A DNA stretch of 64,000 nucleotides from an uncultured Candidatus Saccharibacteria bacterium. Lineage in GTDB: Bacteria > Patescibacteriota > UBA1384 > GWA2-35-9 > CAYZGQ01. A program made the position numbers and the translations under genes. The stretch is taken from assembly GCA_964478135.1 (NCBI GenBank), contig CAYZGQ010000001.1:3365-67364 (forward strand), given 5' to 3'. Each line of letters opens with the position of its first letter. The first letter of the stretch is position 1. This document shows positions 13,208-58,163 of this stretch, one piece after another. Below the pieces are notes generated by a model. That model saw only the letters and a list, made by a program, of their open reading frames with translations, had not been told where the DNA came from and ran no database searches.

Positions 13208-16200
13208 AACGTCATTTGATTAAAACTCTCGAACGTTTGCTTCATCTGCGGCGCCGGACGACAGGCAGAGTTCACGCCCATCTGGTTGGTCGATGGGGCT
13301 GGTATCGAATCTGGCACGAATTTCCTTTTCACCGCCAGGTTCATTTAACCTCTCTTATTTTGATAGTTTTTGGCACGCTCGGTTTGGTCTTGACAGCCAC
13401 TCGGCCGGCCTTGGCAACTGACTACACCGTCTCGACCAACTCGACTTGGTGCGACTCGGGCGATCTGCCGGCCTCAATCGGCAATCTGACAATTAATTCC
13501 GGCGTTACCCTGACACTCGGCGGGACATCTGGCAACGCGGTCAACGGCCAGAATACTGGCGGGACCGACGCCTGTTCTTATGAGGCGCCGAGTTCGGGTG
13601 TCAGTTGGACAATGACCGGGACAGGGACCTTGACGGTTAACGGCACAATCAAAGTTCAAAGCGAGATTTCCGGCTCAACTGGCGGCACAGTCAAAATAGA
13701 TTTTGCGACAGTGACAGTTGCTTCAGGAGGTAAAATTCATGCTGACAGCACGGGGTTTCTCTCATGTAACACATCAGGTTGTACTGGAGGCGGAGCAGGT
13801 GGAGGACAGTGGACCTCTGGCTATTACGGTGGCGGTGGGGGGCATGGCGGGAAAGGCGGCACCGGTCATATTACTAATGGAAAAGGAGGTTCGGTAAATG
13901 GTAATTCATTTGCTCCTGTGACACTGGGTTCGGGCGGAGCGGGAGGTTCTCAAGGGGCAGGAGGTGGAGCAGTTTATATTAATTCAAGTGGCACCGTTAC
14001 AGTTACAGGAACGGTATCCGCAAATGGTGAGGTAAGCAATAGCAGTGTTGGCGGAGGGGGATCTGGAGGGAGCATTTACATTACCGCCGCTACTGTTGCC
14101 GGCGCAGGGACTGTTACAACGACTGGGGGGGATGGTGGTAGCGCATCCGCTGGTGCGGGCGGAGGCGGTAGAGTTGATATTCGCTATTCGACAGCCAATA
14201 CCTTTAGCGTTGCCAACGCAACAGCCGCAACTGGTTCTACTGGCGTAGCTGGTGATGCTGGAACAATTATTTTTATTGATTCAACCAACAAGGATGGGTA
14301 TATCTACAAAACTTTTACATTCAGTGCGGCGCAAGGAATAGATACAAACTTAGCGACAACTACTGACGGAATATTTAATTTTCGCGATCTTACTTTAGGC
14401 GACGCTTCCAACACTGCAACTGTGTTAGCAATATCAACCGGAACAAGCCCCAATGGTAAAGGACCAACCCTCAATCTAACTGGAAACTTTACTTTAGCCA
14501 GTGGCTCAACCTTTTCAGCCAATGGCACGGGTTATTCCGGTGGTTCAACAACTGGCGTTGGGCCTGGGGGTGGAACCTGGGCTAGCGGGTTTTACGGTGG
14601 TGGAGGAGGGTATGGCGGAGCTGGCGCCACGGGGAGCTCCAGCTATGGTGTTGGTGGCCCTACTTATGGTTCAGCTTCAGCGCCAATTGATCTTGGTTCT
14701 GAAGGTGGAGGCGATCTAGCATCCTCATCGGGTGATGGCGGCGGCGCTATTAGAATCAATGCTACTTCAGGCACTGTTACTATCAATGGCACGATTTCAG
14801 CCAATGGTTCTGCTGGAGGCAGTAGTGTATCTGCCGGCGGTTCAGGCGGCAGTATCTATATTACAGCAGCGACGACCGCTGGCACTGGTTCAATTACAGC
14901 TAATGGCGGCGCTGGAGGTAGTGGCAGCGCTGGCGGAGGGGGCGGCGGTCGGTTGGGTCTTTATTATGTGACTGCCCAAAATCACACCGGTAGCAGGACG
15001 GCCAGCCTCGGGAGCGGCGGGACTGGCGGCTCGGCCGGCACGGTCACTCTCAAATCAATCCCAGCCGCTCCGACCCTTTCCTCTCCGGCCGACGCCGACG
15101 GGGTTTCAACCACGCCGGCTTTGCAGTTTTCAACCACTAATGCCGGCACGAATGAAAATGTTCAGTACTACATCCAGATTGACGACAATTCTGATTTTTC
15201 CTCGGTCACTCAAACGATTGACCAAACCGCCTCTCAAACCGGTTGGACCGGACAAGATCGGGCTAACGGCACGAGCGCGACCGCCGGATCAAGTTTTTAC
15301 GCCTCCTCGACCAGCGCCACTTTTACGGTCCAGACCGCTCTGACCACCAACACCACCTATTACTGGCGCGTTCGAGCCATTGCCTCGGGTGGATCGAATA
15401 TCTATGGCAGTTACTCGAGTTCTCGTTCGTTCGTGACCAACGACCCGCCCCAAGTCTCGATCACCAACACCCCGAGCCAGGATTCTTCCGGCAACATCGC
15501 GATCAACTACAATATCTGTGATACCAACCACTCGACGCTGACCATGCGGGTCCAGTTTACGACCAACAACTCGATCTACACGACCGTCGCCGCCGGGGCG
15601 CTCTCGGGCACCAACAGCTTTGGGTCGGTCACCGGCGTCTCGAGTAATTGCGCCTCGCCCAGCGCCAAGACAGTCACCTTTGACGTCTCGGCCGATTCTA
15701 ATGTCCCGGCCTCCTACTACTCGGCCGCCTCGGGAAACTGGAAAGTTCGCATCCAAGCCGACGATGGCATCGCCAACGGCCAGATCAACTCGACCGCCTC
15801 GTCCGCCTTTGAGCTGGACAACGTCTCGCCCGCTACCCCGACCCATTCTTCGCCGGCCAACGCCAGCTACACCAACGACACCACCCCGGATTTGACCGGA
15901 TCGGCCTATTCCGACGACACTACTCAAACCAATCTTCGGATTCAGATTGACGATAATTCGGATTTTAGTTCGGTCGCTGTTGACTACACCAAAGGCGCTT
16001 CCGGCGTGACCTTTACGGTCGGTCAGGCGGTCGGTTCGGGGACATACACCGCCGGATCGGCCGGTCAAACTTTAGCCGACGGGACATACTACTTTCGGCT
16101 GCGCTACACCGATTCAAAAGGCAATCTATCGAGTTATTCGACCGGCACCTCGTTTACCGTTGACGCGACTTCGCCGGTCGCGCCTAGCTCGTTCAATATT

Positions 16201-27353: not shown

Positions 27354-27445
27354 TTTTGTGATATGTGATCTATGCAGGTGCGCATATTTAAGGAGAAAGG
27401 AGGATAACTACGTCCTCTCAATTAAGTCGCAATCCACTGGCCCAT

Positions 27446-30400
27446 TTGATCCCGCTGGCACAAGCAGGCCAGCTTTTTGGCTATTCAGCCGGTCATATGA
27501 ACTATTTAGCCCGGTCAGGGAAAATAATCGCTTTGAAACTCGGGGGTCAGTGGTACACGACTCGGGCGGCTGTTTCAGCCTACCAGGCCGGTCAACCCCA
27601 ACCGGAAAACCCGACCGGATTTATGTCTTTAGCCCAAGCGGCCAAGCAGTATGGCTATAGCGCCGGACATCTCAACCTTTTAGCCCGAGAAGGTAAGCTT
27701 GAAGCGGTGAAACTTGGGCGAAACTGGTACACGACCGAGCGCGCTATCGACCAGTACCGACAAGGCGTGCGTGAGATAGAATTAGTGCCAGATAGTCCTG
27801 ACCCGGCGCTCCAGATATCCCAGCCAGAAAATATTAATGTTAAAGTCAGGCCAGTAGCCAGTTACCAGGGATTTGGCATAACCGAAACCGATGATGACGC
27901 GCCAGGTCCGACCGGGGGATTTAGGCTCAAGTCAGTTATGGTCAGCCGTGGTTTTAAGCTCGGGTTGATCACACTTATAGTGTCTGGGCTGGCTTTTGGA
28001 CTGGGACGACTGGTTCAAGGCTGGCGCACGGGTGAGTTGAATGGACTGGGGCCATCTGGCATCGCGGCTTATTTGTTTGGTGGAGAGTTGGCCCAAGGAG
28101 ATCGTCTGGGCTCGGGTTTTCTCGGCAGTATCACACGAGAGCGAGCTCAATCCGATACGCCTGGGGTCAGACCCGAGGCGAGCCCTAGTCCGGACACTGT
28201 GGTCAATAACACGACAGTCAACAACTATAACCAGACCGTTAACAACGACAATCGTCAGGTGACAAACATCAGTACAACCAAAACTGCTAAAGATATTGTT
28301 GGAGAGTTATCCGACCCGCAGGTGAGTGATGACATCACGATTAACTCGAGCAAGGCTGGTTCGTTTAGTCCAAGCGGTAACACTACTGCCTTGACGGTCA
28401 AGCAAAGTTCAGCCAGTCCCTCGGAAACCCCGATCGTTAAGATTCAAAACGCGTCTGGGGCTAACCTTGTCACAGTTGATTTTGAAGGCAATTTAGGTCT
28501 GGCTGGTGGATCTAGATTGGAAATAGGCGGTCAGCAAATAGGAATTGCCAATCTAGCGGATGGATCTTCTATCGCGTCTCTTTCCGGTAGTCAAACTCTG
28601 ACTAATAAAACTTTGAGCGCGGGCGTTATCTACCAAGGATCGGCGATTAGCCCGAGCTACGGCGGGACCGGTCTAACATCAGCTCCCAGCAACGGCCAAC
28701 TCTTGATCGGCAATGGCTCGGGTTATACTCTGGCGGCTCTAACGGCTGGGACGGCAATTAATGTGACCAACGGTTCTGGTTCAATTACGATCGCTAATTC
28801 AGGTGTTACCTCGCTATCTGCCGGAACCGGCATCGCTGTTAGCGGTTCGTCGGGCGCGGTTACACTGACCAATTCGGGCGTGACCGCTCTGACCGGCACA
28901 ACCAACCAGGTCAGCCTGTCTGGTTCAACCGGTTCGATCACCATCTCAACGCCCCAAAACATTCATACCGGCGCCAGTCCAACCTTTTCAAGGCTCAATT
29001 TATCCGAGGCGTCCAATCAGTTGGTTCTTCAGTCAAATAGTGTTACAGGCAGTCTGACCTGGACGCCGGTCACATCCAATAAAACGATCACTCTGCCTAA
29101 TCTCACCGGAACCGCTTTTTTGATTGATGGAGGCCAGACGATCAGCTCTGCTGTCTGGAACGCTAGCGCTATCGGCCCGAGCTATGGCGGGACTGGTCAG
29201 ACGACCCTGGCCAAGGGTGATATTTTGTATGGCTCGGCGACTGATATTTGGTCGCGACTGGCTGTTGGCAGTATTGGTTATGTCCTCCAGGTCTCCCTAG
29301 ACGGCGTTCCAGAATGGGCGACTATTTCTTCCTTATCTGTTGGTAATGCTGACACGCTTGATTCGCTTGATTCAGCGGATTTTTTGCGCGCGACCGCCTC
29401 GGACACTTTTGAAGGAGTTAATTCAAGAACCCTGACCATTCAGTCTGATCTTTCCTCAGGCGCGAGGACGGTTGACCTTTTGACGATCAGCCAGGCGAAC
29501 GATCCAACCAATAACTTTACGACTGGCAATCTCCTAACAATTGCCCAACTCGACACCGGTTCGTCGGCCGATGCCTTAGAACTTAATCAGACTGGATCTG
29601 GTAAGGCTATTAACATTGTTTCAGGCGAGCTGGCGACAGCCGGCAACATCGTTCAAACCGGGGCAACCACGCTGTCAACCGGCACGGGCGCGGTCTCGCT
29701 CGGGGGTGACACGACCATCGCTACTGGAAAGAACTTGACTCTCGCGTCCGGGACAGGCACTTTTAGTCAGATTTTTAGTAATACGACCGGTACTGGAGCA
29801 AACTGGAATATCACTAACTCTGGTTCTTCTGGGACTAACACTGTTGGCGGGATAGGATTAGTGTTGGCTGGAACCGCCAACACGACTGGTTCGAATGTGA
29901 TTAATGCTATTAATTTTTCCAATGTCCCTCCGGCGACCAATAATTCTTATTACGCCCTGAATGTCGGAACCGGCTTTACTGATATTGTACGCTACAATGG
30001 CGCCCAGTTGATCTCTGGCTCGGGTGTCATTCAATCGGCCGCGCTTTCTGGTAACTACACTGGTGTTACTGGAGTTGGGATTTTATCCACCGGCACCTGG
30101 AATGCAGACACAATCATCTTTGCCAAGGGCGGCACGGGCTTAACAGCCACGCCCAGCAATGGCCAACTCTTGATCGGCAATGGCTCGGGTTACACTCTGG
30201 CCGGCTTAACCGGCACTACCAATCAGATCAATGTCGCTAGCGGGGCCGGTTCGATCACCCTCTCAACTCCCCAAAACATCCATACCGCCGCCAGTCCAAC
30301 CTTTGCCGGTTTGACTTTGTCCGACTTGACCCCTGGTTCTTTGGTCTTTGCCGGCGCCGGCGGGGTGATCAGCCAGGACAACGCCAAGTTCTTCTGGGAT

Positions 30401-34597: not shown

Positions 34598-35275
34598 CTA
34601 GCTGGCTGGCGAGGGGCTTGGGCTAGCGGCTGATTGGCCAGTTTGACGGGCGAACACAATGTAACGTTTGACGAGCGTGCCCGGAGGCCAAGAGGTTTGG
34701 AGAGTTATGGTTTTGTCTTTCGGATCTTTGGGCGTTGGGTCTAGAACCGAGAAGTCGTCAGAGGCGACCACCTTCTTGCCAAAGACCTCGTATTGGTAGG
34801 CGACATTTTTGTAATAGACGATGAACCGATCGCCTTTGTCGAGTTTGTCGATACTTTTGAAGATTTCTTTAAGTTCTGGTTTACCCGGGAAGTTTTTAAA
34901 GTAGCTCGAGTGACCGAAGATGTACATATTTCCCAGTTGGTCCGGTTTCTGGCTACCTTTTAGATGTGCGACACCGAGCTGGGAGGTGATTTTTTGATAG
35001 ACCGGTTCGTTAGCCCCGTCAACATCCGCGATAATTGGAACCCGGATGCTGATTTTTTCGATCTCAAGACCAAATTCTTTGATCTCGACTGGTTCTGGCA
35101 GGGAACTTTGATTAAGCCCTGAAGGAGAGGCAGAGGGTTGAACGATTGATACGTTCAAGCCTGACTTTACCAAAGCAAGCGTTCCGGCAACAACCATAGC
35201 GCTTGCTAGTCCAATACCAAGAATAACTAGCTTTTTTTGAGTAGTCACTTGTGGCAAGACAGATTGTGGGTTCAC
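34598..35275 (-). CDS. sortase-family protein with Ser at the catalytic Cys position (no Cys in the protein)
   Basis: N-terminal TM anchor. The His loop NMYIFGHSSY, KGDRFIVYY..VAYQYEV, and ITLQTSWPPGT..KRYIVFARQ align with sortase TLxTC...R. The nucleophile codon is TCT (plus-strand aga 34691-34693). The start overlaps the stop of the upstream LPKTG gene by 4 nt. Confidence 0.8.
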   Translation of the reverse strand: MNPQSVLPQVTTQKKLVILGIGLASAMVVAGTLALVKSGLNVSIVQPSASPSGLNQSSLPEPVEIKEFGLEIEKISIRVPIIADVDGANEPVYQKITSQLGVAHLKGSQKPDQLGNMYIFGHSSYFKNFPGKPELKEIFKSIDKLDKGDRFIVYYKNVAYQYEVFGKKVVASDDFSVLDPTPKDPKDKTITLQTSWPPGTLVKRYIVFARQTGQSAASPSPSPAS

Positions 35276-38200
35276 GCGAGCCGGCGTCGAAGGGTTACCG
35301 CGACCGATCCAGCGGCAAGAGCGGCCAGTCCGATCAAGGCCAGTAGGTTGAGCGCGAGCGTGTTGGCCCCGGTTTTCGGCAGCTCAACAACCTGCGCCGA
35401 AACCTGATCGGTGTTAATTGACTCGTTGCCAGTTGTATCGAGGGAGCGCAGGGTGTAGTAGTATGTCCCTTTGGCGGTCAGGCTGTCATTATAACTCGTG
35501 TCTGCCTTGACGGTCGTCTTAATTTTATCGCCTAGCTTTCCAGATTCACTCGAGCGGTAAATGTTAATCTTGTCAAAGTCAGAGTCGGTTGGATTTTTCC
35601 AAGTTAAACTGATCTTACCAGTGCCGGCAGTCGCTTTGACTTCGCTTGGAGCGGCCGGCGGGGCGCTGTCAGCGTTGGCCGCCAGGCCAAAGACGGTTAA
35701 GTGGGAAACCAAACAACTAACTTCGTTTTTAGTGGTGTCAACGGTGCAGTTTTCCTTAGACAGTGAACCATCGGTCTCGTTGAATGAGACGATCTGGATA
35801 TCAGCTTCTTTGACCCCGGCCGGAATATCGGATTCTTTATAGGGGAAGGTGACGGTCAAGGGACTGTTGGGAGAAGTAATGTTAGAACCATTAGAGTCGA
35901 TCGCCGTGATATTATAAGCCTTTCCAAAGACAGAGGCACCTTCTTGGGCAGGCATTTCTGCTGTGGCGCCAACATTAAGCGTGACATTAGCGTCATCATT
36001 GTTTTTATCGAGTGCATCTGCGGGCACTTGGATGTTCATACCATCGCTTAAGGAGATTGCCGTAGCCGAACCCGAATTGCCAGTTCTTGAAGCGTCAGCT
36101 GGCAAAACGTTGCTTTGGGTAGTCAAACTAAAATCTTGGGTGAGATTGGTCGTTTGACCCTTGGTGTTAACCAGTTTTTCACCTGGTAGGATTATGACAT
36201 CTTTTTGGTTATCAGCATCTTTGGCGACATCAAGGTGCCAGACAGTATCTTTGGTGGCATTCATTGAGTATTTGCCATTGGAATCAGTCCGGACTTGGTT
36301 GACAGCGCCGTCGTCGGAATAGGCGCTGACAAGGGCATTGTTGACTGTTTGAGCGCTGGAATCATTAACTGTGCCTTCAAACTTAAAGTCGGCTTTGCGT
36401 AACTTAAAGTCAACCCCAGTTTTAGTTTCTTGATTGCCCACGCTAACGATTTGTTCAGCCGGTGGTAGCCAGCCATTTTTATTCAGCACTTCGGGCGCCA
36501 TAAAAACTCGGATGTTTTGGGTTTCACTGGAAGTGACATCGATTGAGTAGCTACCATTCGTATCAGTTTGGCCACTGAATTCGAAGAAGTCAGGCACAGG
36601 ACCTTTAGTTGCGTTGCGGTTATCGTCGTCTAGGCCGTTGTCCACTTTAACTTTCGCTCCCACGACCGCGTTACCATCGGGATCGGTGACTTTACCTTGG
36701 ATTTTGCTGTCAAGGGCTTTGAGTGTTACTTTAACCTCTGCCGTTTGGCCGGCCGTCAGGCTGACTTTGTCTTTGGGGGGTACCATGGCAAAGCCTGAAC
36801 CTGGTTCGATAAAGACACCGACACGGTAGGGGCTTTGCCCGGCAACAACACTAATGTTGTTAACAGAGGCGGCTCCGCCATGACCGGCGAAATCACCCAT
36901 GACATTGACACCTTTGTCAGAAATAGCAAAGGCGTGGGCAAAGACGCCGGAAATGGCACTGCCGTCAGATTTCACTAACTTAACGGCAATGTTAGCATCG
37001 GTAGGAACCAGCTTGATATCAATTGATTTGACCTCGTTTTTAGCAAGTTTGACCTTGCTAAATCCTTCGGGCATAAAGCCGTTCATTGGCATCATTGGGT
37101 TTAATGTGTACTCATTGTCACCGGGAACTTTGATATTAGCGCTCCCACGCTGGATTGGTTTACCCAGAAAGCCGATCGTATCACTATTAACTTCCATAAA
37201 GCCAAAGCTGTCAGAGACGACAGCTTTGGTGTCAGAACGGGTAATCCTGGCCTTGATGGTGGCATCGGCGTTAAGTGCCTCGAAGGTAGCTGTTCCACCG
37301 GCTTCAACGAACTGTGGCCCGCCTTTGATCACCTTGGAACTGCCAGCCTGTTGCTCTTGATCCTTTTGACCACCTTCAGGTCCAAAGTTCTCTGACATCA
37401 CCATCACGCCGTATTTGCCCGTGCCGACCACAGGGATCGTGCCGGTTGCTTCGGTCCCAGTCAGCTTAAGAATAGTAAAGCCGAATTCACCGCCTCCACC
37501 GACGCCCATCTTAAAGACATTGGCATTCATGTCGGCGGAGCCGTTTTTAACCACGACTTTGATTGCCTTTTCTTTTTTTACCAGAGTCAGGATACCGAGG
37601 TTTTTGGTTTCGCCGGCTTTAACCGCGATTGGCTCAATGACAGGCGCTGCGAACTGGGCGGCGTTGGGATTTTGGAAGTTCGGTGGCGAAAAGATGTCGA
37701 AATTATAGCTTTTTCCTCCGGCTACTTTCACGTTGAAGTTGACCGAGGAGGCACCCGGGGTAATCTGGAGGGGCGCGCCAAAGCCAAAGTCATTACCGGC
37801 CCGGATACCAAGACCGGTGCCTTGAGCTAGGGCGGATCCATCAGGCGTGGTAATTGTACCGGTAACCGCGGCGTCGACTTTTACGAAGTTATTAATGTTA
37901 ACGGTGACTGTTTCCACTGAATCGTCGTCTTTAAAGCTAGCCTGAATTGGCGGACCGCTCATCACGAAACTGCCGGCCCCATCGCTCGGGGCATGGATAT
38001 TCCATCTACCACCCGAGAGTTTGACGCTGTAGTTGCCGCTCCCGTCGGTTTTAGTTTGGGCAAAACCACCCGCTTCTTTAAAGAAGTTTAAGCTAGTAGT
38101 GATTACAGCTTCACCGGTCGCGGTGGTTGCTTTACCGGTTAAAGTTTTGGTCGCAGATTTAAATTTAATGGTTTTGCCAGTCAATTGGCTGCCGGTGTAG

Positions 38201-38577
38201 GTACCAAGATCTGTGAACGGGGGAGAGATTAATCCAGTGGTTGAGCCGTCAAACGGTGGGAAAAGATCGGCCACGAGCTTGTCGCCGCTTTGGGTGTTAT
38301 TAGCGAAGTCTTGGATAGTTGCCAGGCCGTTAGCGTCTGAATTGCTAAATAAGGAATATTTAAAATCAATCGGATGGACGTTAACTCCGGCGTTTTTGAC
38401 CGGCGCGCCATCGGCATCCTGGATGGTAATTACAATAATGGTTTTAGCCGTGGGTGGTGGTTGGGCGAGTGAGGCGCCAGAGTAGGCGAGGACTAGGCCC
38501 GCGATAGTGAAGACGCTTGTAAGGCCGCGCCAGTACAGGCGGAAAGCACCCGCCTGGGTCGTTCCTGATTGTAACAT
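35272..38577 (-). CDS. LPKTG-anchored giant surface protein (about 1101 aa), CarboxypepD_reg/Ig-like repeats plus C-terminal FN3
   Basis: I set the start at ATG 38577, preceded by AAAGGAGGG-N4; the ORF-track TTG 38598 lies upstream of that SD. Signal peptide ...LVLAYSGASLAQ. The C-terminus has an FN3 domain (ISLTWKNPTDSDFDKINIYRS) followed by LPKTG, a hydrophobic stretch and RRRLA. Confidence 0.85.
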   Translation of the reverse strand: MLQSGTTQAGAFRLYWRGLTSVFTIAGLVLAYSGASLAQPPPTAKTIIVITIQDADGAPVKNAGVNVHPIDFKYSLFSNSDANGLATIQDFANNTQSGDKLVADLFPPFDGSTTGLISPPFTDLGTYTGSQLTGKTIKFKSATKTLTGKATTATGEAVITTSLNFFKEAGGFAQTKTDGSGNYSVKLSGGRWNIHAPSDGAGSFVMSGPPIQASFKDDDSVETVTVNINNFVKVDAAVTGTITTPDGSALAQGTGLGIRAGNDFGFGAPLQITPGASSVNFNVKVAGGKSYNFDIFSPPNFQNPNAAQFAAPVIEPIAVKAGETKNLGILTLVKKEKAIKVVVKNGSADMNANVFKMGVGGGGEFGFTILKLTGTEATGTIPVVGTGKYGVMVMSENFGPEGGQKDQEQQAGSSKVIKGGPQFVEAGGTATFEALNADATIKARITRSDTKAVVSDSFGFMEVNSDTIGFLGKPIQRGSANIKVPGDNEYTLNPMMPMNGFMPEGFSKVKLAKNEVKSIDIKLVPTDANIAVKLVKSDGSAISGVFAHAFAISDKGVNVMGDFAGHGGAASVNNISVVAGQSPYRVGVFIEPGSGFAMVPPKDKVSLTAGQTAEVKVTLKALDSKIQGKVTDPDGNAVVGAKVKVDNGLDDDNRNATKGPVPDFFEFSGQTDTNGSYSIDVTSSETQNIRVFMAPEVLNKNGWLPPAEQIVSVGNQETKTGVDFKLRKADFKFEGTVNDSSAQTVNNALVSAYSDDGAVNQVRTDSNGKYSMNATKDTVWHLDVAKDADNQKDVIILPGEKLVNTKGQTTNLTQDFSLTTQSNVLPADASRTGNSGSATAISLSDGMNIQVPADALDKNNDDANVTLNVGATAEMPAQEGASVFGKAYNITAIDSNGSNITSPNSPLTVTFPYKESDIPAGVKEADIQIVSFNETDGSLSKENCTVDTTKNEVSCLVSHLTVFGLAANADSAPPAAPSEVKATAGTGKISLTWKNPTDSDFDKINIYRSSESGKLGDKIKTTVKADTSYNDSLTAKGTYYYTLRSLDTTGNESINTDQVSAQVVELPKTGANTLALNLLALIGLAALAAGSVAVTLRRRLA
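35368..35382 (-). other. LPKTG sortase-recognition motif codons
   Basis: The reverse complement of 35368-35382 reads ctg ccg aaa acc ggg (L P K T G). It is followed by 26 mostly hydrophobic residues and RRRLA. Confidence 0.85.
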
Positions 38578-40068: not shown

Positions 40069-40959
40069 ATGGCTACCAAGATTATTAAAGTAAAAGCGGT
40101 CAAGTCAGCCCAAACAACTACCGGTCGCCAGAAGACCGAAAGCCATCTTATGGGTAAGACGAGCAAGGCCAAGGAGCCTTCAAAGATAGCCCTGCCAAGT
40201 GTTGAGAAACTATTTGAACTGGGCGCCCATTTTGGTCATCAGCGCTACCGATCTCATCCTGATTTTCAGGAATACGTCTGGCAAGTGCGCGATGGAGTTA
40301 TGATTTTGGATTTAAGCCAAACGCTTGACCGGCTCAAACTGGCGCTTGATTTTTTGGACAAGCAGAGTCGACTTGGCAAAAAAATACTAATTGTTGGGAC
40401 CAAGAGAATCAGTCGTGATTTGGTCGAGCGCTTGGGTAAAGAAACAAACACAGCTTGGGTCTCAAACCGGTGGTTGTCTGGTACTTTGACTAACTTTGCC
40501 ACTCTGATTGGACAAATCAAAAAACTCAATCGTTTAAGCGAGTTGATCGGCTCGAAAGAGTTTGAGCAGATGACTAAAAAGGAACGTTTAATCTGGGAGC
40601 GAAAACTGGCCAGGCTCCACGACAACTTTGACGGTTTGAGCAGTCTTGAGGCAAGACCGGATATATTAGTGGTGATTGACGGACACGCTCACCGGATTAG
40701 CACAGATGAAGCCAAACGTTTGGGGATCACCACGGTCGTGTTCGCCGACAGCGACACTGATCCTAGCCTGTGCGATTACTTGGTCCCGATTAACGATGAT
40801 TCACGATCAACGATCGAGCTGGTGATTAATTTAATCGGTCAAGCGATCGGCGGTGCCAGAACATCTGATCAGACAACAAAGCCGGACAGTCTAGTAAAAA
40901 GTGACAGAGCCAGAGCGCGCGGTTTAAGTAAAATCAATAATGTCCAAGACGTTAGTTGA
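40069..40959 (+). CDS. rpsB: ribosomal protein S2 with N- and C-terminal extensions
   Basis: The core LFELGAHFGHQRYRSHP...ILIVGTKR...RWLSGTLTN matches S2. An N-terminal extension of about 45 aa is present; an alternative start at ATG 40150 is possible. Confidence 0.9.
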   Translation: MATKIIKVKAVKSAQTTTGRQKTESHLMGKTSKAKEPSKIALPSVEKLFELGAHFGHQRYRSHPDFQEYVWQVRDGVMILDLSQTLDRLKLALDFLDKQSRLGKKILIVGTKRISRDLVERLGKETNTAWVSNRWLSGTLTNFATLIGQIKKLNRLSELIGSKEFEQMTKKERLIWERKLARLHDNFDGLSSLEARPDILVVIDGHAHRISTDEAKRLGITTVVFADSDTDPSLCDYLVPINDDSRSTIELVINLIGQAIGGARTSDQTTKPDSLVKSDRARARGLSKINNVQDVS

Positions 40960-41404
40960 GACGATCAAAAAGCTCCGGGATGAAACAGGGGCCGGACTAA
41001 TGGATGTTAAAAAGGCGCTCACTCAAGCTGGTTCGGATCTCAACAAGGCGAGAGTGATTCTGCGTCAGACAAGCGCTGTCAAAGCGGTTCAAAAGAGTGA
41101 ACGCTCGACCCAAGCCGGCTTGATCGAATCATACGTCCACGCCGGCAAAATCGGGGTGCTGGTTGAGCTGGGTTGTCAGACCGATTTTGTGGCGCGCACG
41201 AGTGAGTTCAAGGCGCTAGCCCATGAACTAGCCCTGCAAGTGGCCTCAATGGCCCCTAAAAACGTGACCGAGCTGTTTAGCCAAAACTACATCAAAGACG
41301 AGTCAACCACGATCAAGCAGATTGTGAATAACGCGATCGCGAAACTGGGCGAAAATATTCAAATTAAGCGTTTTGTAAGGTTTGAACTTGGTCAGGGCGA
41401 CTGA
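40940..41404 (+). CDS. tsf: elongation factor Ts (short form, 154 aa)
   Basis: The UBA-like N-terminus IKKLRDETGAGLMDVKKAL, YVH.GKIGVLVEL.CQTDFVART. 20-nt overlap with rpsB. Confidence 0.85.
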   Translation: MSKTLVETIKKLRDETGAGLMDVKKALTQAGSDLNKARVILRQTSAVKAVQKSERSTQAGLIESYVHAGKIGVLVELGCQTDFVARTSEFKALAHELALQVASMAPKNVTELFSQNYIKDESTTIKQIVNNAIAKLGENIQIKRFVRFELGQGD

Positions 41405-41444
41405 CCATTCTTCAAACTGTAATGTCTCAACCGATTAGTTGCTC

Positions 41445-41473
41445 TTGACAAGGCTGGTTTATGTCTTGACAAT
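41445..41473 (+). promoter_or_regulatory. putative promoter of the second LPKTG gene
   Basis: TTGACA 41445-41450, a 17-nt spacer, then GACAAT 41468-41473. A second overlapping TTGACA sits at 41466-41471. Confidence 0.4.
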
Positions 41474-41503
41474 GTAAGTAAGACACAAACCGAAGGAGGG
41501 GAA

Positions 41504-44500
41504 ATTAATTCAAGACAGAATGAGACTTGGGGGTTTAGTCTAGGAGAGTCTCTTGCGAAGCCCTTTATATGGCTAGTGCTGGGTGTTTTAGCCCTGCTCG
41601 GTCTGGTTTTAGTCAGTCCTTCGGCCGTCCAGGCCGGTGCAATCACCGGTTTGTCGGTTACAGTCAGTGACACGAGCGTCCAAGGGACGGCTGACTGGAC
41701 AATTGCCCTGACTCCAGAACAGTCAGTCCCAGCCAAGTCAAATGGCGGTCGGATTCACATGTGTGTCTATGGACCAGGCTCGATGAGTTTTCGGGATGGT
41801 TCTGTCGCGCTCGATTCGTCGGCTAGCACGAGCGGTTTGTCAATCTATGAACGGTTGGGAAATTGTATCACCCTTCAGTCAAACAGCGAGATCGCAGGAG
41901 GAACGGTTATCACTGCCAAACTGACAGGGGTTAGAAACCCAGACAAAGCCGGACGGTATGTTGGTCACATCTACAGCTCGACCTACGGCACCGCCCGAGA
42001 CGGCACCTCTCGCTGGGGCGGGCTCTACAATAGTTCTTTTACCATCGGCGATTTGACCAAGAACACTATTTCAGGTACGGTCACAGATGCCAATGGCGCA
42101 CCGGTCCGGTTTGCCTCCGTCTCTGTTTGGGGTAGCGGCGGCGGCGCTTGGGGCTACAGCTACACCGATCAAAATGGCCAGTACGCGATCGGCAGTCTAA
42201 CCACTGGCTCCTACAACTTTAGCGTCTACGGTCCCTACAACGAAGACGGTATCTTTTATTTTGCGCCTGATGTTTCGAGTATTTCAATTTCCGATACTTC
42301 GGCCACGACCAAAAACGCCAGCTTTTTAGCGACTCCCAAAACATTGCAAATTAAGGTTGAGGACGGCTCTGGTACAGCCATAACCGATGCCTATGTCTCG
42401 ATCTGGTCCAGAAACGGGAATGGTTGGGCTCAAACCAAAAACAACACCAACGGAGTCTACAAGATTAATGTTCCGAAAAACCGGACTTTTGGGTTTAGCG
42501 TTTATCCCCAAAATTGGCCTTCAACCTGGCAGTCATGCGGCAGTTATAACGAAGAAGTTACGACCGCCAACACCGATACGGCCGAGACTGTCAGTAAGAC
42601 GTTTAAGGTTTCCTCGCTCAACGCCACGGTCAAAGGTAAGATTGAGCGGTCTGACGATAGCACGCCCAAGCGCTGGTCAGTGAGCGTGAGTTTCCAGTCA
42701 AGCGGAGGTTGCTGGGCTTCAGCCGACTTTCCCGACGACACTGGTAATTTCAGCGCTAAAGTTGTCAGTGGCGAGACTATCACCGCGACTGGTTGGGTTT
42801 CGAGTGATCTCAACGAATCATTCCCAACGGTCAGTAACTTTTCGGTCCAAGCCAACCAAGAGCACAACCTGGGCGTAATCAAACTTAAAAAGCGTGATAA
42901 AAAGCTCGCTGTGACGGTTGTGGACAAAAATGGCGATCCGGTTAACAAGGCCAACGTCTACGCTTGGAAAACTGGCGGTTCGTATGAATATGCCAACGGC
43001 ACAACTGGCTCCGATGGCAATGCGGAACTCTTTTTGAGTCCAGGCAGCTGGAATGTTTCGGCCGGGCCAGAGTACCGCTGGAATGGCTCAAACAACGAAT
43101 ATGACTATGTCTCCAACTGGAAGTCTCAATTGATCAGCTTTTCCGAGTCAGACACGACTAAAACGATCAAGTTTATCTTCCAAAAGGTTACCTCAACGAT
43201 TAATGTCACCGTGACCGATGAGGCTGGGAGCGTCCTTAACCTATCGGGTAGTTTGTCGGCCAACGATGGTTCGCAAGAATGGTCAAATATCTGGTCCCAG
43301 CTCAATAGTGGCAAAGGCAAGCTTAGGGTTCCCCGAGGGACCTGGAGTGTTAACGCCAGTATTTGGGATGAGACCTATAGCTCACCAAATCCGGTTGACA
43401 TCACGATCGGTGATAATGAGACCAAAGAGATCAAGCCCAAGGCCTTGATCAATGATTCGACCATTTCCGGCAAAATCTACACAGAAGATGAAGATGGTAA
43501 CCGGACCCTGCTTAAAAACACTTGGCTTAGCATCTATGCTAACAAAAAAAATTCCTACTCTTCTTGGCGGTCAGCCTCGGTCAACCAAGAAGAAGGAACC
43601 TATTCGATCAAAGTTTCCTCGGGTGACTGGAGGCTCGGTTACTGGTTTTATAACAACAATTATATGTCAGGATACGGGAACGAAGTTGATGTATCGGTTA
43701 AATCAGGTGAAACTAAGACCCAAGATATTATTCTGCGCAAAGCTAACTACACCATCTCGGTCAAGGCGCTCGATCCAGACGGCAAGGCGCTGATGGGGGC
43801 TTGGATCACGGCTGACACGCGCAATCCTAAAGAGCGGACCGAAGCTGGTACTTGGTACTCAACCGGTACCTCAACCAATAATCAGGGAGAGGGGACGATT
43901 CAAGTGTCAGCCAACACTTACTGGATTAGTGGTTCGATGTGGTCAGGTTATATCAGTCCAGAGCGCCAAGAGGTTAAGGTCAATAAAGACAATCCAACTG
44001 CCAGTGTCACTCTCCAGTTCGGTCGGTCTGATGCGACTATATCTGGCACAGTCAAGCTCGATGACAAAGGGACTAAGTCGTTTGTTAATGCGGTCAGCGA
44101 GAAAGGCCGCTATGCCGAGACTAATTCAAGTAACGAAGGCCATTACATCCTCAACGTCTCGAAAGACGACACTTGGGTCGTCAAGGCAGTTAAAAAGGAT
44201 GGCGCAACTTTGTATCGATCAGACAAGAATCGAGTTGATCTCACTGGTAAGACCACGGGCATAGTCAATCTCGATTTGGTAAAAGAAACAATCAAGTTGC
44301 CGGAGGGGACGACCAGCACCTTTAATGCCAGCCAGTCAACTACCGTTAAGATTAAAAATGGCAATGTTGACGAAGTGATCATCACTGTTCCGACTGGCAC
44401 CCTGTCGAGCGATAATGAACAGATAACTGTAACGGCCGATGTGACCGAAGAGGTCACCGACACTTCAACTAGCGAGCCTGTTTTCGACTACGGTTATGAC

Positions 44501-45193
44501 ATCAACGCCAACGGTAGCCAATCCGGCACAATCAGCCAGTTGAAGGATAACGTGACCGTGACCGTAAACTATTCGGCCAACGAGCAGGCGATCCAAGATG
44601 AGGGAACAGAAGAGGACCTAGTGGTAGCCCGTTTCAACAACGAGAAAGGTGAATGGGAGCAACTCCAAGGTTGCGCTACAAACAAGGATGACAACACTAT
44701 TACCTGTCAAAATAATCACTTCACCAAGTTTGCGGTTGTCGCTTCAACCGACATCACCCCACCTTCTGCTCCAGGTAGCCAGAAGGCGATTGCTTCGAAC
44801 GCTAAGATTTCTTTAAGCTGGAGCAAGCCAAGCCAGGCCGACTTTGCCGGGGTTAACATCTATCGGTCAACCGAGAGTGGCAAGCTGGGTGATAAGATTT
44901 ACGGCAAAAATACCTCCACCAGTCACGACGATACGGTTCTGATCAACGACACGGTCTATTACTATACCCTCAAGTCAGTTGACAAAGCCGGTAACGAGTC
45001 AACCGCATCCGATCAGCTCAAAGCCAAGCCTTCAGCAACCTCGCCGGAGTCATCGGACGGTTCAACCACTGCCACGCTCTCAATTCTGCCCAAGACTGGT
45101 CAACCAGCCTCGCCTTTGAATTGGTTGTTGGCGATTCTGACAGTGATCAGCCTGGCCGGGGTCAGGGCATCGAGGATTGTCCGGATTAAGTGA
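41504..45193 (+). CDS. LPKTG-anchored giant surface protein (1229 aa if ATT 41504 is the start; 1205 aa from GTG 41576)
   Basis: GGAGG 41495-41499, then N4, then in-frame ATT 41504. This start adds an n-region (MNSRQNETWGFSLGESLAKPFIW) in front of the hydrophobic core LVLGVLALLGLVLVSPSAVQA. The body has CarboxypepD_reg-like repeats (ISGTVTDANGAPVRFASVSVW...TDQNGQYAIGSLTTGSYNF). The C-terminus has an FN3 domain, then LPKTG 45086-45100, a hydrophobic stretch and RIVRIK. Confidence 0.8.
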   Translation: MNSRQNETWGFSLGESLAKPFIWLVLGVLALLGLVLVSPSAVQAGAITGLSVTVSDTSVQGTADWTIALTPEQSVPAKSNGGRIHMCVYGPGSMSFRDGSVALDSSASTSGLSIYERLGNCITLQSNSEIAGGTVITAKLTGVRNPDKAGRYVGHIYSSTYGTARDGTSRWGGLYNSSFTIGDLTKNTISGTVTDANGAPVRFASVSVWGSGGGAWGYSYTDQNGQYAIGSLTTGSYNFSVYGPYNEDGIFYFAPDVSSISISDTSATTKNASFLATPKTLQIKVEDGSGTAITDAYVSIWSRNGNGWAQTKNNTNGVYKINVPKNRTFGFSVYPQNWPSTWQSCGSYNEEVTTANTDTAETVSKTFKVSSLNATVKGKIERSDDSTPKRWSVSVSFQSSGGCWASADFPDDTGNFSAKVVSGETITATGWVSSDLNESFPTVSNFSVQANQEHNLGVIKLKKRDKKLAVTVVDKNGDPVNKANVYAWKTGGSYEYANGTTGSDGNAELFLSPGSWNVSAGPEYRWNGSNNEYDYVSNWKSQLISFSESDTTKTIKFIFQKVTSTINVTVTDEAGSVLNLSGSLSANDGSQEWSNIWSQLNSGKGKLRVPRGTWSVNASIWDETYSSPNPVDITIGDNETKEIKPKALINDSTISGKIYTEDEDGNRTLLKNTWLSIYANKKNSYSSWRSASVNQEEGTYSIKVSSGDWRLGYWFYNNNYMSGYGNEVDVSVKSGETKTQDIILRKANYTISVKALDPDGKALMGAWITADTRNPKERTEAGTWYSTGTSTNNQGEGTIQVSANTYWISGSMWSGYISPERQEVKVNKDNPTASVTLQFGRSDATISGTVKLDDKGTKSFVNAVSEKGRYAETNSSNEGHYILNVSKDDTWVVKAVKKDGATLYRSDKNRVDLTGKTTGIVNLDLVKETIKLPEGTTSTFNASQSTTVKIKNGNVDEVIITVPTGTLSSDNEQITVTADVTEEVTDTSTSEPVFDYGYDINANGSQSGTISQLKDNVTVTVNYSANEQAIQDEGTEEDLVVARFNNEKGEWEQLQGCATNKDDNTITCQNNHFTKFAVVASTDITPPSAPGSQKAIASNAKISLSWSKPSQADFAGVNIYRSTESGKLGDKIYGKNTSTSHDDTVLINDTVYYYTLKSVDKAGNESTASDQLKAKPSATSPESSDGSTTATLSILPKTGQPASPLNWLLAILTVISLAGVRASRIVRIK
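45086..45100 (+). other. LPKTG sortase-recognition motif codons
   Basis: ctg ccc aag act ggt, followed by QPASPLNWLLAILTVISLAGV and a basic tail. Confidence 0.85.
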
Positions 45194-45876
45194 AATATGC
45201 TTTAACGGCACATCTTTTATCCCGGGCGGGCAAAATAGATGAGCCTGATTTGATGATACTCATAACGGAAGCGGGATAATGGTGACCGTAAGCGATCGAT
45301 CAATCGCCGACCACTTACAGGCTGGCGTAAAGACATTGATTTAACCGACAAATCTCAAAAAAGCGGTTGGTTTTTTTTGTTTTGCTCGCGCTTTGTGAAT
45401 CTTAGACCAGGCAGGATCGAGGGTGAGGTATGGGCCCGAATAATTTAGGAGTCTGCTGGAAGGATCAGTCAATGTCTGATGAGCCCAGGCTGATCAAGGC
45501 CGGTTTTACCACCTGCTATTGACAATGGGCCTTAAAAAGTGTCTGGCTCCAGGTACCTTGGACTGGGTAGGGCCCGGCAGGCCCGACATTTGTCAAGACA
45601 AACAATCGCCACGATCAGCCTCGGATCTTGCGGATCTAGAATGCCTCGCGTCTAGCAGCCTGATATAAAACACCCCGAGAGACTTGACTAGTCAAGACCG
45701 TCAGATGACACTGGAGACCGTCTGGCCAAAGGCCGACCGGATGAGCGTCCAATAAGCGTGATATCGCAATAACTAAAAAATAGGTCAATTCAGTCTGGTG
45801 GTACCAGGCCGCGGATCAGGCTCTGACTGGTTCAAGATAAAAAATAAACGGGATGGGGCAATAATCAGCCATTGGG

Positions 45877-45897
45877 GTCGCCCAAAAGGCGATTTTT
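45877..45897 (+). terminator. putative small intrinsic terminator / attenuator hairpin
   Basis: gTCGCC-caaaa-GGCGA followed by TTTTT, ending 6 nt before ATG 45904. Confidence 0.35.
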
Positions 45898-45903
45898 GAT
45901 CAA

Positions 45904-49528: not shown

Positions 49529-49557
49529 ACTACTAACTAAATTTCCAAGGAGGTTCG

Positions 49558-49842
49558 ATGGACGATTCAATGAATCCCGTTGGCGGTGGTACGGGTGCCG
49601 GCGATACCGGTTCTACCGACACTGGCGCCGGGGCTGTTCCTAGTACGCCAAGCGGCGACACCAGTACGGGGGATGCAGATCAAACCCCTGCTTCTGGGGG
49701 GGGTAGCTCGGTCCCAACGCCCCCAGCTCCTTCTGGCGGCGATGGTGGTTGGACTCCTGCTGGGGCTGATACAGCTAGCATACCAGATGGTGATTCCGAT
49801 TATTCGGCCGACGCAGTTCCAACTCCACCCGCCGGTCAGTAA
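49558..49842 (+). CDS. small acidic G/T/P/D-rich (probably disordered) protein
   Basis: GGAGG-N4-ATG, 94 aa, and a strong terminator immediately downstream. No TM helix or signal peptide. Low-complexity sequence. Confidence 0.5.
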   Translation: MDDSMNPVGGGTGAGDTGSTDTGAGAVPSTPSGDTSTGDADQTPASGGGSSVPTPPAPSGGDGGWTPAGADTASIPDGDSDYSADAVPTPPAGQ

Positions 49843-52000: not shown

Positions 52001-52017
52001 GAGCGGCTGGAGGAGAT

Positions 52018-52410
52018 ATGGCAAAGCATCTGGCTATTTTTAGCCCTAATCAACTGATCGAAAAAATTTTTCGCTCTATCAAGACGGTTGATGGTCGCTT
52101 GACCCAAGACCGAGTCGCTCCCTATGGGTTGGTTAAAAAAGGCGACACAATCCTGATTAAAATCAGCGGCGGACCGGTTTTAGGTCAGGTTGAAGTGGAT
52201 AACGTTTTGTTTTTTGAGCTGACAGATGGGGAACTATTGGGTAAACTTCGGAAAGAGTATGGGGCTGACATGGCGGTTGACGATCGTTTCTGGGAACTTA
52301 AACGAGAGGCCCGCTTTGCCAGCATCATCTTCTTAACCAAACCCAAACGTTACCTGACGGCGCTCAAGTTCAAAAAGCGCGATCGCCGGGCTTGGGTCGT
52401 AGTGGGATAA
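52018..52410 (+). CDS. ASCH (PUA-like) domain protein
   Basis: 130 aa. IFSPNQLIEKIFRSIKTVDGRL....VKKGDTILIK..GGPVLGQVEVDNV fits the ASCH pattern (...I..G.KT.E.R.....i..GD.i.l......v.g.v.v..v). Confidence 0.5.
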   Translation: MAKHLAIFSPNQLIEKIFRSIKTVDGRLTQDRVAPYGLVKKGDTILIKISGGPVLGQVEVDNVLFFELTDGELLGKLRKEYGADMAVDDRFWELKREARFASIIFLTKPKRYLTALKFKKRDRRAWVVVG

Positions 52411-52427
52411 AAGAAGGAGGTTGTCCT

Positions 52428-52544
52428 TTGACAATTATTCGTCGGTCGATTTTATCGGTCGGCTCGTGCATTTTAATGGCGGAAAATTTGTCGGATTGTG
52501 GGATTAGTGGATCGATGGCAAAGCTAAAAGGAGGTAGGGAATGA
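52428..52544 (+). CDS. candidate 38-codon small ORF (below ORF-track threshold)
   Basis: The orphan strong SD GAAGGAGG 52413-52420 sits 7 nt upstream of TTG 52428. Translation is MTIIRRSILSVGSCILMAENLSDCGISGSMAKLKGGRE. Its TGA overlaps the ATG of the next gene (ATGA 52541-52544). Confidence 0.3.
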   Translation: MTIIRRSILSVGSCILMAENLSDCGISGSMAKLKGGRE

Positions 52545-54190: not shown

Positions 54191-54223
54191 GAGAGCCGGG
54201 TCGTGCTAGAGTAATTGGCACAG

Positions 54224-55486
54224 ATGGCGAATCGTCACTCTAGTTCGAGCCGACTTTCAGTCCCCGAGATTAAGGTGAGCCTCAAAAAGTTGCCTCGGTC
54301 ACGGGTTGCGCTGACGATTAGAGTATTCCAACAAATGTTAGGCGCCACGGCCAAACGGGTCTACTCAGCCATTGCTCCCCAAGTGACAGTGGCCGGCTTT
54401 CGGCCGGGCAAGGCGCCGATTGACAAAACGATCGAGGCGTTCGGTCGCGTCCGTTTTAGCAACGAAGTCCTTAACTTAGCCCTAAAAGAAAGCTACCAGC
54501 AGGGGCTTGAGAAAAATCAACTTGTGCCAGTGGCTGGGCCCTCAATCAGCTTGGCGGCTTGGCGGCTCGACGAGCGTGGCCGGCCGCTTGAGAATCTAGT
54601 CTACACGGCTGAAGTTGATGTCATGCCCAAGGTGTCAGTCAGCGGCTACCAGTCGATCCGTCTCAAAGACTATCAACCGTTGTCAAGCGAGGTGACCGAT
54701 CAGGAGGTTGAGGCGGTGTTAGATCATTTGAGCCGTCAGCGGGGTGAGCTCAAACCGCTTGACCGACCGGCGAGACTGGGAGACTGGATCCTTATTAGTT
54801 TTAAGGGCAGTATCGAAGGTGTGGTCAAAGAGCCGCTCACGTCAAAAAATTATCCTCTTGTTCTTGGGTCGAGGCGAATGGTCCATGGTTTTGAAGATAA
54901 TGTGGTTGGTATGAAGGCTGGTCAAAAAAAAACCTTTGAGTTGAGACTGCCCAAGTCAATCAAGGATTTGGGCGGCCGGAGAGCGGGCTTTGAAGTTTTG
55001 CTCCATGAGGTTAAAGAAATTATTAAGCGGCCGATTGACCAGGCCTTTGCCCAGTCTCTTGGTCACGAATCTCTTGAGAGTCTTAAAAAGGCGATCAGGG
55101 CCAATTTAGTTCGGGAAAAGAGTCAACGGGCGCGTCAACACCTGGAACAGACCGCTATACGGGAACTGCTTAAAAAACTGTCAGTCGAGATTCCAGACAG
55201 CTTAATCGAGCGTGAGCTTGGGCGGATGCTCGATTCGATTCGTGAGAGCGTTACCAAACAGGGACTGACCATGGAGGGCTACTTGGCTTCAATTAAAAAG
55301 ACGATCGAGCAACTGGCCCAAGACCTTCGAACCCGAGCCCAAGACTCGGTTCGAGCCGGTTTAGCCTTGACCGCACTTGGCCAGGCCGAAGCAATTGATA
55401 CCAATCAGCCAGGGTCAACTAATAAAGTGATTAACAGATTGATCGAGATTGGACTGCGATCAGATAAGAAATCAGATAAGAATTGA
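54224..55486 (+). CDS. tig: trigger factor
   Basis: The N-terminal ribosome-binding region includes GFRPGKAP. An FKBP-like middle domain ([14 protein letters not shown]....) and a helical C-terminal domain follow. I chose ATG 54224 over the ORF-track TTG 54215. Confidence 0.85.
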
Positions 55487-57044: not shown

Positions 57045-58163
57045 TTGGGAAAAGGAGGGATCATTAAAACAGGCGGTAAAAGGATCTTAATTTTAAACTG
57101 GTACGATAAGCGTCATCCCAAATCAGGGGGGGCTGAAGTTTACCTTGAAGAGGTGGCTAAAGAGCTTAGTTTACTTGGCCATGAAGTCCATTGGTTTGCT
57201 AGTTCCTTTTCTGGTAATACTCCCCACGAGTTAGTTGAGGGTATCACAATCGAGCGTTTTCATCAGTCGTACTTAATCAATCTAGTCAGCTTGTGGCGTT
57301 TGTTCAAGGAGCGTTCCCGTTTTGATCTGGTGATTGACGCGACCAACAAATTGCCTTACCTAACCTCGATATTTTTTAGATCAAAATCCTTGCCCTTGTT
57401 TTTGCACATCAACGATCAAATTTTTACCAAAGAATTCGGCCAGATTTTTGGTCGGCTGGGCAGGTGGTTTGAACGACAGATGGTCAAAACCTACCGTCGG
57501 CTCAAGGTTGTGGCGATCTCGAAAAGCACGGCCAGCGATCTTGAAAAATTGGGATTGTCACAAGAACAAGTCGTGATCGCGGTTCCAGGTGTTAAGACCG
57601 ATCTGTACCGCCCTGGCAAAAAATCTGACTATCCTTTGATCGTGTCGGTCAACAGACTCCGCCGCTATAAAAACCTCGACATTTTGATCAAGTCTTTTAA
57701 GGCTGTTAACCGGTCAATTCCTAAAGCCCGGCTCGTGATAATGGGCAGGGGTCCAGATTATGCCCGTTTGGTTAGGTTGATTCATAAGTTCAAGCTTGAG
57801 CAATCGGTCAGACTGACTGGATTTGTGTCCGAGAGGGAAAAAATTAACTGGCTTCAAAAAGCTTGGATTCACGTCAATCCTTCAACCAAAGAAGGTTGGG
57901 GTCTTAACGTGATTGACGCGGCGGCCTGCGGCACGCCCTCGGTCGGAAGCGATGTCGCGGGTTTGAGAGATTCGATCCAAGATGGTGCTACAGGTTGGCT
58001 GGTGCCAGTTGGAGCCGAGTCTGCTTTGTCAAGAAAGCTGATTAAAGTTTTAAAAGACCATCAGCTAAGGCGGCAGATTGGTAAACGATGCCTCGGCTGG
58101 GCCAGTCAATTCAGCTGGGCGCAGACCGCTCGAATGTTCGATGAAGTCATTAGCTCTCGCTAG
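57045..58163 (+). CDS. glycosyltransferase family 4 (GT-B)
   Basis: C-terminal EGWGLNVIDAAACGTPSVGSDVAGLRDSI (the E-x7-E region). An alternative start is ATT 57063, preceded by GGAGG-N4. Confidence 0.8.
   Translation: MGKGGIIKTGGKRILILNWYDKRHPKSGGAEVYLEEVAKELSLLGHEVHWFASSFSGNTPHELVEGITIERFHQSYLINLVSLWRLFKERSRFDLVIDATNKLPYLTSIFFRSKSLPLFLHINDQIFTKEFGQIFGRLGRWFERQMVKTYRRLKVVAISKSTASDLEKLGLSQEQVVIAVPGVKTDLYRPGKKSDYPLIVSVNRLRRYKNLDILIKSFKAVNRSIPKARLVIMGRGPDYARLVRLIHKFKLEQSVRLTGFVSEREKINWLQKAWIHVNPSTKEGWGLNVIDAAACGTPSVGSDVAGLRDSIQDGATGWLVPVGAESALSRKLIKVLKDHQLRRQIGKRCLGWASQFSWAQTARMFDEVISSR

Follow-up and report, generated by a model that had tools for sequence, protein, structure and literature searches.

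A probable AUU start behind an extended Shine–Dalgarno sequence in a giant LPKTG surface-protein gene from a Candidatus Saccharibacteria genome

We analysed 64,000 nucleotides of contig CAYZGQ010000001.1 (positions 3,365–67,364; hereafter the window, numbered from its first letter) from an uncultured Candidatus Saccharibacteria bacterium, a member of the Candidate Phyla Radiation (CPR), and consider here the second of two genes that encode giant proteins with an LPKTG sortase motif. This gene is probably translated mainly from an AUU codon at 41504 and not from the GTG at 41576, which gene callers and the database protein P0001 (1205 aa) take as the start. The initiation site, the export and the expression level of the protein are what we infer from the DNA. 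The AUU start had been proposed in an earlier note on this stretch. The proposal gains from a second gene with the same arrangement, a GT4 glycosyltransferase, from the local RNA structure, the pattern of lysine and arginine residues, the Shine–Dalgarno (SD) sequences of the orthologues and the use of GTG at only 1/38 confident starts; it loses by its poor conservation, by the net charge of the n-region and by the scarcity of SDs in the genome.

The SD sequence AAGGAGG occupies 41493–41499 on the plus strand, with its GGAGG part at 41495–41499, and is followed by GG; the plus-strand reading is ccgAAGGAGGggaaATTaattcaagac. The spacer ggaa (41500–41503) leads to the ATT at 41504–41506. GTG 41576–41578, the first canonical start, lies 72 nt or exactly 24 codons 3' of the ATT in the same frame. 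From 41423 onward the frame is free of stops, and no ATG, GTG or TTG occurs in it before 41576; ATT 41504 is the only near-cognate codon (ATN or NTG) in the stretch before the GTG. Translation from the ATT adds a 24-codon extension (41504–41575) that reads (M)NSRQNETWGFSLGESLAKPFIWL and makes up the n-region and the beginning of the h-region of a signal peptide. The arrangement GGAGG-ggaa-ATT, with the ATT in frame and no stop before the GTG, had been described in the earlier note, and every coordinate proved exact, as did the translated peptide. Over 9.6 kb around the gene there are no differences between Logan contigs from two different sequencing runs. Since the DNA is identical in two independent Logan assemblies, ATT 41504 is not an assembly error. 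The features of the gene, of its paralogue and of the neighbouring sortase gene are as follows.

41504–45193, plus strand: full coding sequence under the AUU model, 1229 aa and a stop codon, with CarboxypepD_reg/Ig-like repeats (PF13620 and others).
41504–41635, plus strand: predicted Sec signal peptide of 44 aa, with an n-region of ~23 aa, the h-region FIWLVLGVLALLGLVLV, the c-region SPSAVQA and cleavage before GAITG.
45086–45100, plus strand: LPKTG sortase motif at residue 1171 (GTG numbering), followed by the hydrophobic segment QPASPLNWLLAILTVISLAGV and the basic tail RASRIVRIK.
35272–38577, minus strand: paralogous LPKTG giant protein of 1101 aa, starting at AAGGAGG-N4-ATG, with a hydrophobic segment and a basic tail after the LPKTG.
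34598–35275, minus strand: sortase gene (PF04203, E = 1.7e-21), directly 3' of the paralogue gene.

The LPKTG motif is thus present in both giant proteins, as had been claimed. The GTG start of the sortase gene overlaps the TGA of the paralogue gene (GTGA), which suggests that paralogue and sortase form a coupled substrate–sortase pair.

The distribution of SD sequences in the window argues for a functional site at 41493. AAGGAGG occurs 14 times over both strands, and seven of the copies fall in intergenic DNA, which makes up 8% of the window; the number is eight if 57052 is included, a site that counts as coding only if TTG 57045 is the start of its gene. All eight stand at the 5' ends of genes in sense orientation, none in antisense. 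Five sit 4–7 nt before a canonical start (ATG at 11629, 49558, 38577 on the minus strand and 52541; TTG at 52428), and another two precede an in-frame ATT, at 41504 and 57063, by exactly 4 nt. The eighth, at 27397, belongs to a double SD; canonical starts are absent within 40 nt of it, and an in-frame ATA follows at 27404. SDs in this genome are rare and purposeful, the bearers including both LPKTG giant-protein genes, and AAGGAGG 41493–41499 is very probably a functional SD.

The spacing at 41504 is the N4 of the canonical SD-led genes at 11629, 49558, 52018 and 38577 (minus strand). The earlier note had drawn a local GGAGG-N4-ATG rule from these genes (11620–11631, 49549–49560, 52009–52020 and, on the minus strand, 38589–38575). 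All four examples are real, but the rule is not strict, as N3 (25890), N6 (52541) and N7 (TTG 52428) are also used. The chance that two of three orphan SDs would have an in-frame ATT at N4 is ~1e-4 in a strict estimate that takes the downstream sequence as random, and ~0.025 in the most liberal estimate, in which any ATH codon at N3–N8 is accepted. The same scan over ~60 kb of related CPR loci gave no orphan SD-ATH site; such sites are therefore not a routine product of the scan.

The second of these sites provides independent support for AUU initiation in this genome, and the strongest that our analysis has added.

57052–57065, plus strand: AAGGAGG-gatc-ATT at the 5' end of a GT4 glycosyltransferase gene (57063–58163).

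Initiation at this ATT gives MKTGGKRILILNW. In ~120 GT4 homologues the initiator Met stands one or two residues before a conserved ILxLNW strand, and no ATG, GTG or TTG occurs between the SD and that strand in the present gene. The sole canonical option, TTG 57045, is 5' of the SD and would place the SD inside the coding sequence; the database protein P0006 is called from this TTG and so carries six extra residues. A Logan contig that differs by a single-nucleotide polymorphism (SNP) elsewhere, at 57749, keeps the identical SD-ATT.

Two measures of RNA structure were compared at the candidate starts: the local minimum free energy (MFE) over -30 to +30 and the opening energy over -15 to +12. 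The reference was a set of 38 confident starts in the window, 37 of them ATG and one GTG (pgk).

38 confident starts: MFE -8.3 ± 3.7 kcal/mol; mean opening energy 7.9.
Random positions: MFE -12.7 ± 4.8 kcal/mol; mean opening energy 11.4.
ATT 41504: MFE -5.1 kcal/mol; opening energy 9.7.
GTG 41576: MFE -14.3 kcal/mol; opening energy 13.5.

The MFE puts the GTG above 95% of real starts in degree of structure, and only 3% of them are equally hard to open. The local RNA structure is start-like at the ATT and not at the GTG. The AT-richness of the upstream sequence was uninformative as a discriminator of starts. A hairpin that would place the SD beside the GTG was considered and rejected, as 41480–41600 folds no better than shuffled sequences (z = +0.73). 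A single candidate promoter was found upstream.

41445–41473, plus strand: candidate sigma-70-like promoter TTGACA-17 nt-GACAAT, with 10/12 consensus matches.

It is the sole match in 41200–41800, where 0.3 would be expected from shuffles, and is a consensus match only; it would imply a transcription start near 41480 and a leader of ~23 nt to the ATT. The spacer between tsf and the giant gene was negative for Rfam families (at the gathering threshold and at E<=1), in ARAGORN and in a terminator scan.

Under the AUU model the predicted signal peptide is MNSRQNETWGFSLGESLAKP-FIWLVLGVLALLGLVLV-SPSAVQA↓GA. The cleavage site was placed by inspection, from the AXA-like VQA, and by alignment to an AGAxT motif conserved in the orthologues. 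The hydrophobic core FIWLVLGVLALLGLVLV has H12 = 3.03, and the cleavage region SPSAVQA↓GA aligns with those of the orthologues. Ahead of the core the AUU product carries R4 and K19, the latter two residues before it, whereas the GTG product has no lysine or arginine (K/R) there. All other N-terminal signal or anchor sequences in the window have at least two K/R residues before the hydrophobic core, except that of RseP, an exception probably explained by an N-terminus that lies outside. From this pattern we infer that an n-region with K/R is functionally required. The earlier note had described a complete n–h–c signal peptide from the ATT; the K/R residues, the core and VQA↓GA bear this out, but the n-region is not net positive, and the signal peptide is longer than that of any orthologue. 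In the paralogue the signal peptide measures ~40 aa, and its n-region is long and polar. The predicted N-terminal peptide from the AUU start is (f)MNSRQNETWGFSLGESLAK; the peptide NSRQNETWGFSLGESLAK would be expected from the AUU start and would be at odds with a start at the GTG.

Relatives of the giant protein were found only in metagenome-assembled genomes of Ca. Saccharibacteria and Berkelbacteria, at 35–43% identity, and a protein search returned the identical protein and three orthologues at 39–43% identity and nothing else. Exact-cluster look-ups for the protein gave single-member clusters. Seven of eight orthologues have a strong SD 3–9 nt before their ATG or GTG, which leads one to expect an SD at the start that the giant gene really uses; an n-region containing K/R is present in 8/8.

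A number of observations weigh against the AUU start. None of the eight orthologues begins with ATT, all having ATG or GTG, and their starts align inside the extension, the first ~10 residues of which have no counterpart. The orthologues have 29–38 residues before AGAxT, the AUU version has 43 and the GTG version 19; both models are length outliers, the GTG model the larger. Against shuffled sequences, the extension is not significantly similar to the orthologue N-termini (best score, p = 0.60; summed score, p = 0.07), and a resemblance of AKPFIWL and IKPIIFL to those N-termini was dropped as evidence on the same ground. The conservation of the 24 upstream codons, which the earlier note had proposed to test, does not show in the available sequences: the only other copies are identical, and the orthologues start with ATG or GTG within the equivalent region. 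The codon log-likelihood ratio of the extension, +0.59, is ambiguous, falling at the 5th percentile of coding and the 96th of out-of-frame sequence, with 25% of intergenic windows as high. No close relatives were found in single-protein scans of GTDB genomes and JGI metagenomes with patterns that included RQNETWGF, which lies inside the extension. As close relatives are lacking, the non-conservation of the ATT is uninformative rather than contradictory. The n-region of the AUU product has a net charge of 0 (R4 and K19 against E7 and E15). GGAGG-N4-ATT also occurs twice within genes, at 13735 and 24488. A recognisable SD precedes only ~8–10 of roughly 50 genes in the window, ~80% being without one, and pgk has an SD-less GTG start that profile mapping confirms. 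In E. coli an AUU start gives 1–2% of the AUG output (10.1101/063800).

Given the SD-less genes and pgk, initiation at GTG 41576 is conceivable, and it is the most serious competitor: translation would start there independently of an SD, and AAGGAGG-ATT would be the relic of a mutated ATG start or a chance motif in a leader of ~95 nt. We think this improbable, while granting it a real chance. The GTG is the first canonical start and the choice of the gene callers, and the signal peptide that it leaves, MLGVLALLGLVLVSPSAVQA, is 20 aa long; its hydrophobic core of 13 residues and VQA↓G leave it plausible as a Sec signal. The codon usage of the extension is weak, its homology to the orthologue N-termini not significant, and chance copies of GGAGG-N4-ATT exist inside genes. 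The earlier note had remarked that the GTG has no SD; none was found, but this is a weak argument alone because most genes here are SD-less. More telling is that 95% of real starts have less structured RNA than the GTG, that the codon itself serves only one of 38 confident starts, and that the product would lack the K/R n-region of the other exported proteins here and have 10 residues fewer before AGAxT than the shortest orthologue. A perfect 7-mer SD would moreover be functionless, whereas the other intergenic AAGGAGG sites serve starts, and the recurrence of SD-N4-ATT at the GT4 gene would go unaccounted for. The latter point also tells against a recent, non-adaptive change of ATG to ATT that has knocked the gene down or out, leaving it silenced or decaying with residual initiation at the AUU, the GTG or both. 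Such a lesion would fit the ATG or GTG of all orthologues, and the SD is still perfect, as a recent change predicts; other available copies are identical and give no sign of long-term conservation of the ATT, and ATG-to-ATT/ATA start mutations readily arise in Listeria (PMC13068326). The 3.7-kb open reading frame (ORF) is, on the other hand, fully intact, two independent recent lesions at two genes would be unlikely, and the ATT is the same in contigs from two runs, at least one of which came from a slightly different strain (SNP 57749). We regard this explanation as distinctly unlikely.

A frameshift is the least probable of the alternatives, and one that we would hardly entertain but for a short ORF between the SD and the GTG.

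41520–41543, plus strand: 7-codon upstream ORF in the +1 frame, ATG to TAG (MRLGGLV and stop), with a G_GGT_TTA heptamer at 41531–41537 and a G5 run at 41529–41533.

Translation would begin at ATG 41520 with the N-terminus MRLGGFSLGESLAKPFIW... and pass into the main frame by a -1 slip on G_GGU_UUA or by a change in the length of the G5 run, yielding the fused product MRLGGFSLGESLAKP... The heptamer fits X_XXY_YYZ in the correct frame, one codon before the stop of the upstream ORF, the context of ATG 41520 is AT-rich and unstructured like that of the SD-less starts here, and the product would have 38 residues before AGAxT, within the orthologue range, and an n-region of net charge +1. Yet the SD is 20 nt from this ATG, outside the 3–9 nt seen here and in the orthologues. 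No stimulatory structure was found (41480–41600, z = +0.73), and the sole hairpin includes the slip site. Five G residues are few for phase variation, and the length of the run is the same in three assemblies; the chance of an in-frame heptamer is estimated at ~3–4%; and the GT4 case is left unexplained.

If the giant gene is indeed read from AUU 41504, a transcript beginning near 41480 would carry a leader of ~23 nt, on which a 30S subunit could dock at the extended SD AAGGAGG(GG). The initiator tRNA would then be set on the AUU 4 nt downstream, the spacing of the SD-led ATG genes. Pairing of AUU with the initiator anticodon would be imperfect and subject to proof-reading by initiation factor 3 (IF3), so that the output might be roughly 1–10% of that of an AUG version, by analogy with characterized starts; the strong SD would make the weak AUU usable. 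The product would be a preprotein of 1229 aa that is exported by means of a Sec signal peptide of 44 aa and cleaved after VQA, and a sortase, for which a gene lies at 34598–35275, would attach it to the cell wall through the C-terminal LPKTG. The likeliest origin would be an ATG-to-ATT change that throttles an expensive surface protein. The class of an extended SD with AUU or AUA is already known, and the giant gene is one more case and no new mechanism.

The closest parallels are in Staphylococcus aureus, where cvfC1 (AUU), ccpN (AUA) and infC (AUA) have extended SDs and yield ~10% of the AUG output (PMC13009471). In these genes, as in the giant gene, a weak AUH codon stands at optimal spacing behind a long perfect SD in a monoderm-type bacterium, and a constitutive throttling to roughly a tenth of AUG would be expected in both. 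Initiation profiling and reporters located the S. aureus starts, which are conserved across species, whereas the present site is known from sequence and the orthologues have ATG or GTG; the S. aureus products are small regulators, and ours is a secreted protein of 1229 aa anchored by sortase. E. coli infC and pcnB also start with AUU (cited in 10.1101/063800 and PMC13009471), decoded by the initiator tRNA with an efficiency limited by IF3 proof-reading. For infC the AUU is part of an autoregulatory loop of IF3 itself, whereas the giant gene has no link to an initiation factor. The earlier note had alluded to the regulatory AUU start of infC; a role of that kind is unsupported here: the product is a CarboxypepD_reg/Ig-repeat LPKTG surface protein unrelated to IF3, and autoregulation of the infC type can therefore be set aside. 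Only the logic of pcnB, in which an inefficient start limits expression, is applicable. In Listeria monocytogenes, ATG-to-ATT/ATA variants of the rsbW start tune the protein level in the order ATG > ATA > ATT (PMC13068326). There too a single-base change with the SD kept would act as an evolutionary dial; in Listeria both ancestral and derived alleles were seen and fitness was measured, whereas here the ancestral state is deduced from distant orthologues.

Gram-positive bacteria produce LPXTG sortase substrates with long signal peptides. The giant protein resembles them in its Sec signal, its repeat-rich Ig-like body, the LPXTG motif with the hydrophobic segment and basic tail that come after it, and the sortase encoded nearby. 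It differs in that the host is a CPR bacterium and that no YSIRK-type motif is seen by eye in the signal peptide.

The practical consequence is one of annotation. Standard gene callers allow only ATG, GTG and TTG, hence the truncation of the giant protein by 24 residues and the six-residue extension of the GT4 protein. The truncation strips the n-region from the signal peptide and could mislead secretion prediction for a candidate host-attachment protein of an epibiotic-type CPR bacterium. If the AUU start is real, a large secreted, adhesin-like protein joins the short list of AUU-throttled bacterial genes with extended SDs; if it is a one-off start-codon variant, the finding is an ordinary one with its main value in correcting the annotation.

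The occurrence of two such sites in 64 kb of an SD-poor genome raises the question of whether the reduced ribosomes of CPR bacteria are more tolerant of near-cognate starts. In bacteria AUU and AUA starts typically account for well under 1% of genes. Two, possibly three, of the eight SD-led genes here appear to start with AUU or AUA, and it is tempting, if rather doubtful, to suppose that the lineage has relaxed, or exploits, its stringency in selecting start codons. If so, at least a quarter of SD-led genes and ~4–6% of all genes would start at AUU/AUA; frequent AUH starts would then suggest that IF3, the initiator tRNA or the reduced CPR ribosome has a property peculiar to this lineage, and might be a systematic throttle on envelope genes. 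A literature search on non-canonical starts in CPR/Patescibacteria found nothing specific. Within part of the Parcubacteria, anti-SD motifs are frequently absent, according to a paper on CPR ribosomes (PMC9297842).

NCBIfam profiles were run on stop-to-stop translations of 20 genes in search of missing N-termini and gave no further clear AUH case. The housekeeping genes fit canonical ATG starts, pgk a GTG and rsmI a TTG; the starts of trigger factor and ClpP are ambiguous, and both have canonical options. Around the trigger factor start, at 54215–54280, the first ATG, 54224, would make the N-terminus ~15 aa longer than is usual in the family. Further in, the in-frame ATT 54269 and GTG 54275 align with the usual Met1 region (IKVSLKKL compared with MQVSVETT in E. 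coli), and there is no SD.

The possible third non-canonical start is ATA 27404. The double SD AAGGAGaAAGGAGG lies within 27390–27446, and the ATA is in frame and precedes TTG 27446, the first canonical start of an 1816-aa protein of repeated HTH_17 domains. Both candidate starts lie within structured RNA, and a homologue search for the protein found none.

An unannotated 38-codon ORF lies within 52414–52544; it begins at TTG 52428, with AAGGAGG 7 nt 5' of the TTG, and encodes MTIIRRSILSVGSCILMAENLSDCGISGSMAKLKGGRE. The TGA of this ORF and the ATG of the following gene overlap (ATGA), an arrangement suggestive of translational coupling.

The window is 92% coding and holds rpsB, a short tsf, frr, proS, metG, pgk, clpP, tig and other housekeeping genes. 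The 710 nt downstream of the giant gene (45194–45903) are unusual at this density, with no ORF above 50 aa and no Rfam match even at E<=1, and may hold a divergent non-coding RNA or the remains of a gene. The 2085-aa protein encoded at 13204–19461 combines a Gly-rich, GGAGG-encoding stretch close to its N-terminus with seven purple-acid-phosphatase-N/Fn3-like repeats; without an LPXTG, it is a giant surface-type protein that lacks a sortase signal. The EF-Ts encoded at 40940–41404, by a tsf gene that overlaps rpsB by 20 nt, is only 154 aa long, and its sole Pfam match (PF00889, residues 72–150) corresponds to positions 1–77 of the 204-position EF_TS model. So short an EF-Ts fits the reduced translation factors of CPR bacteria.

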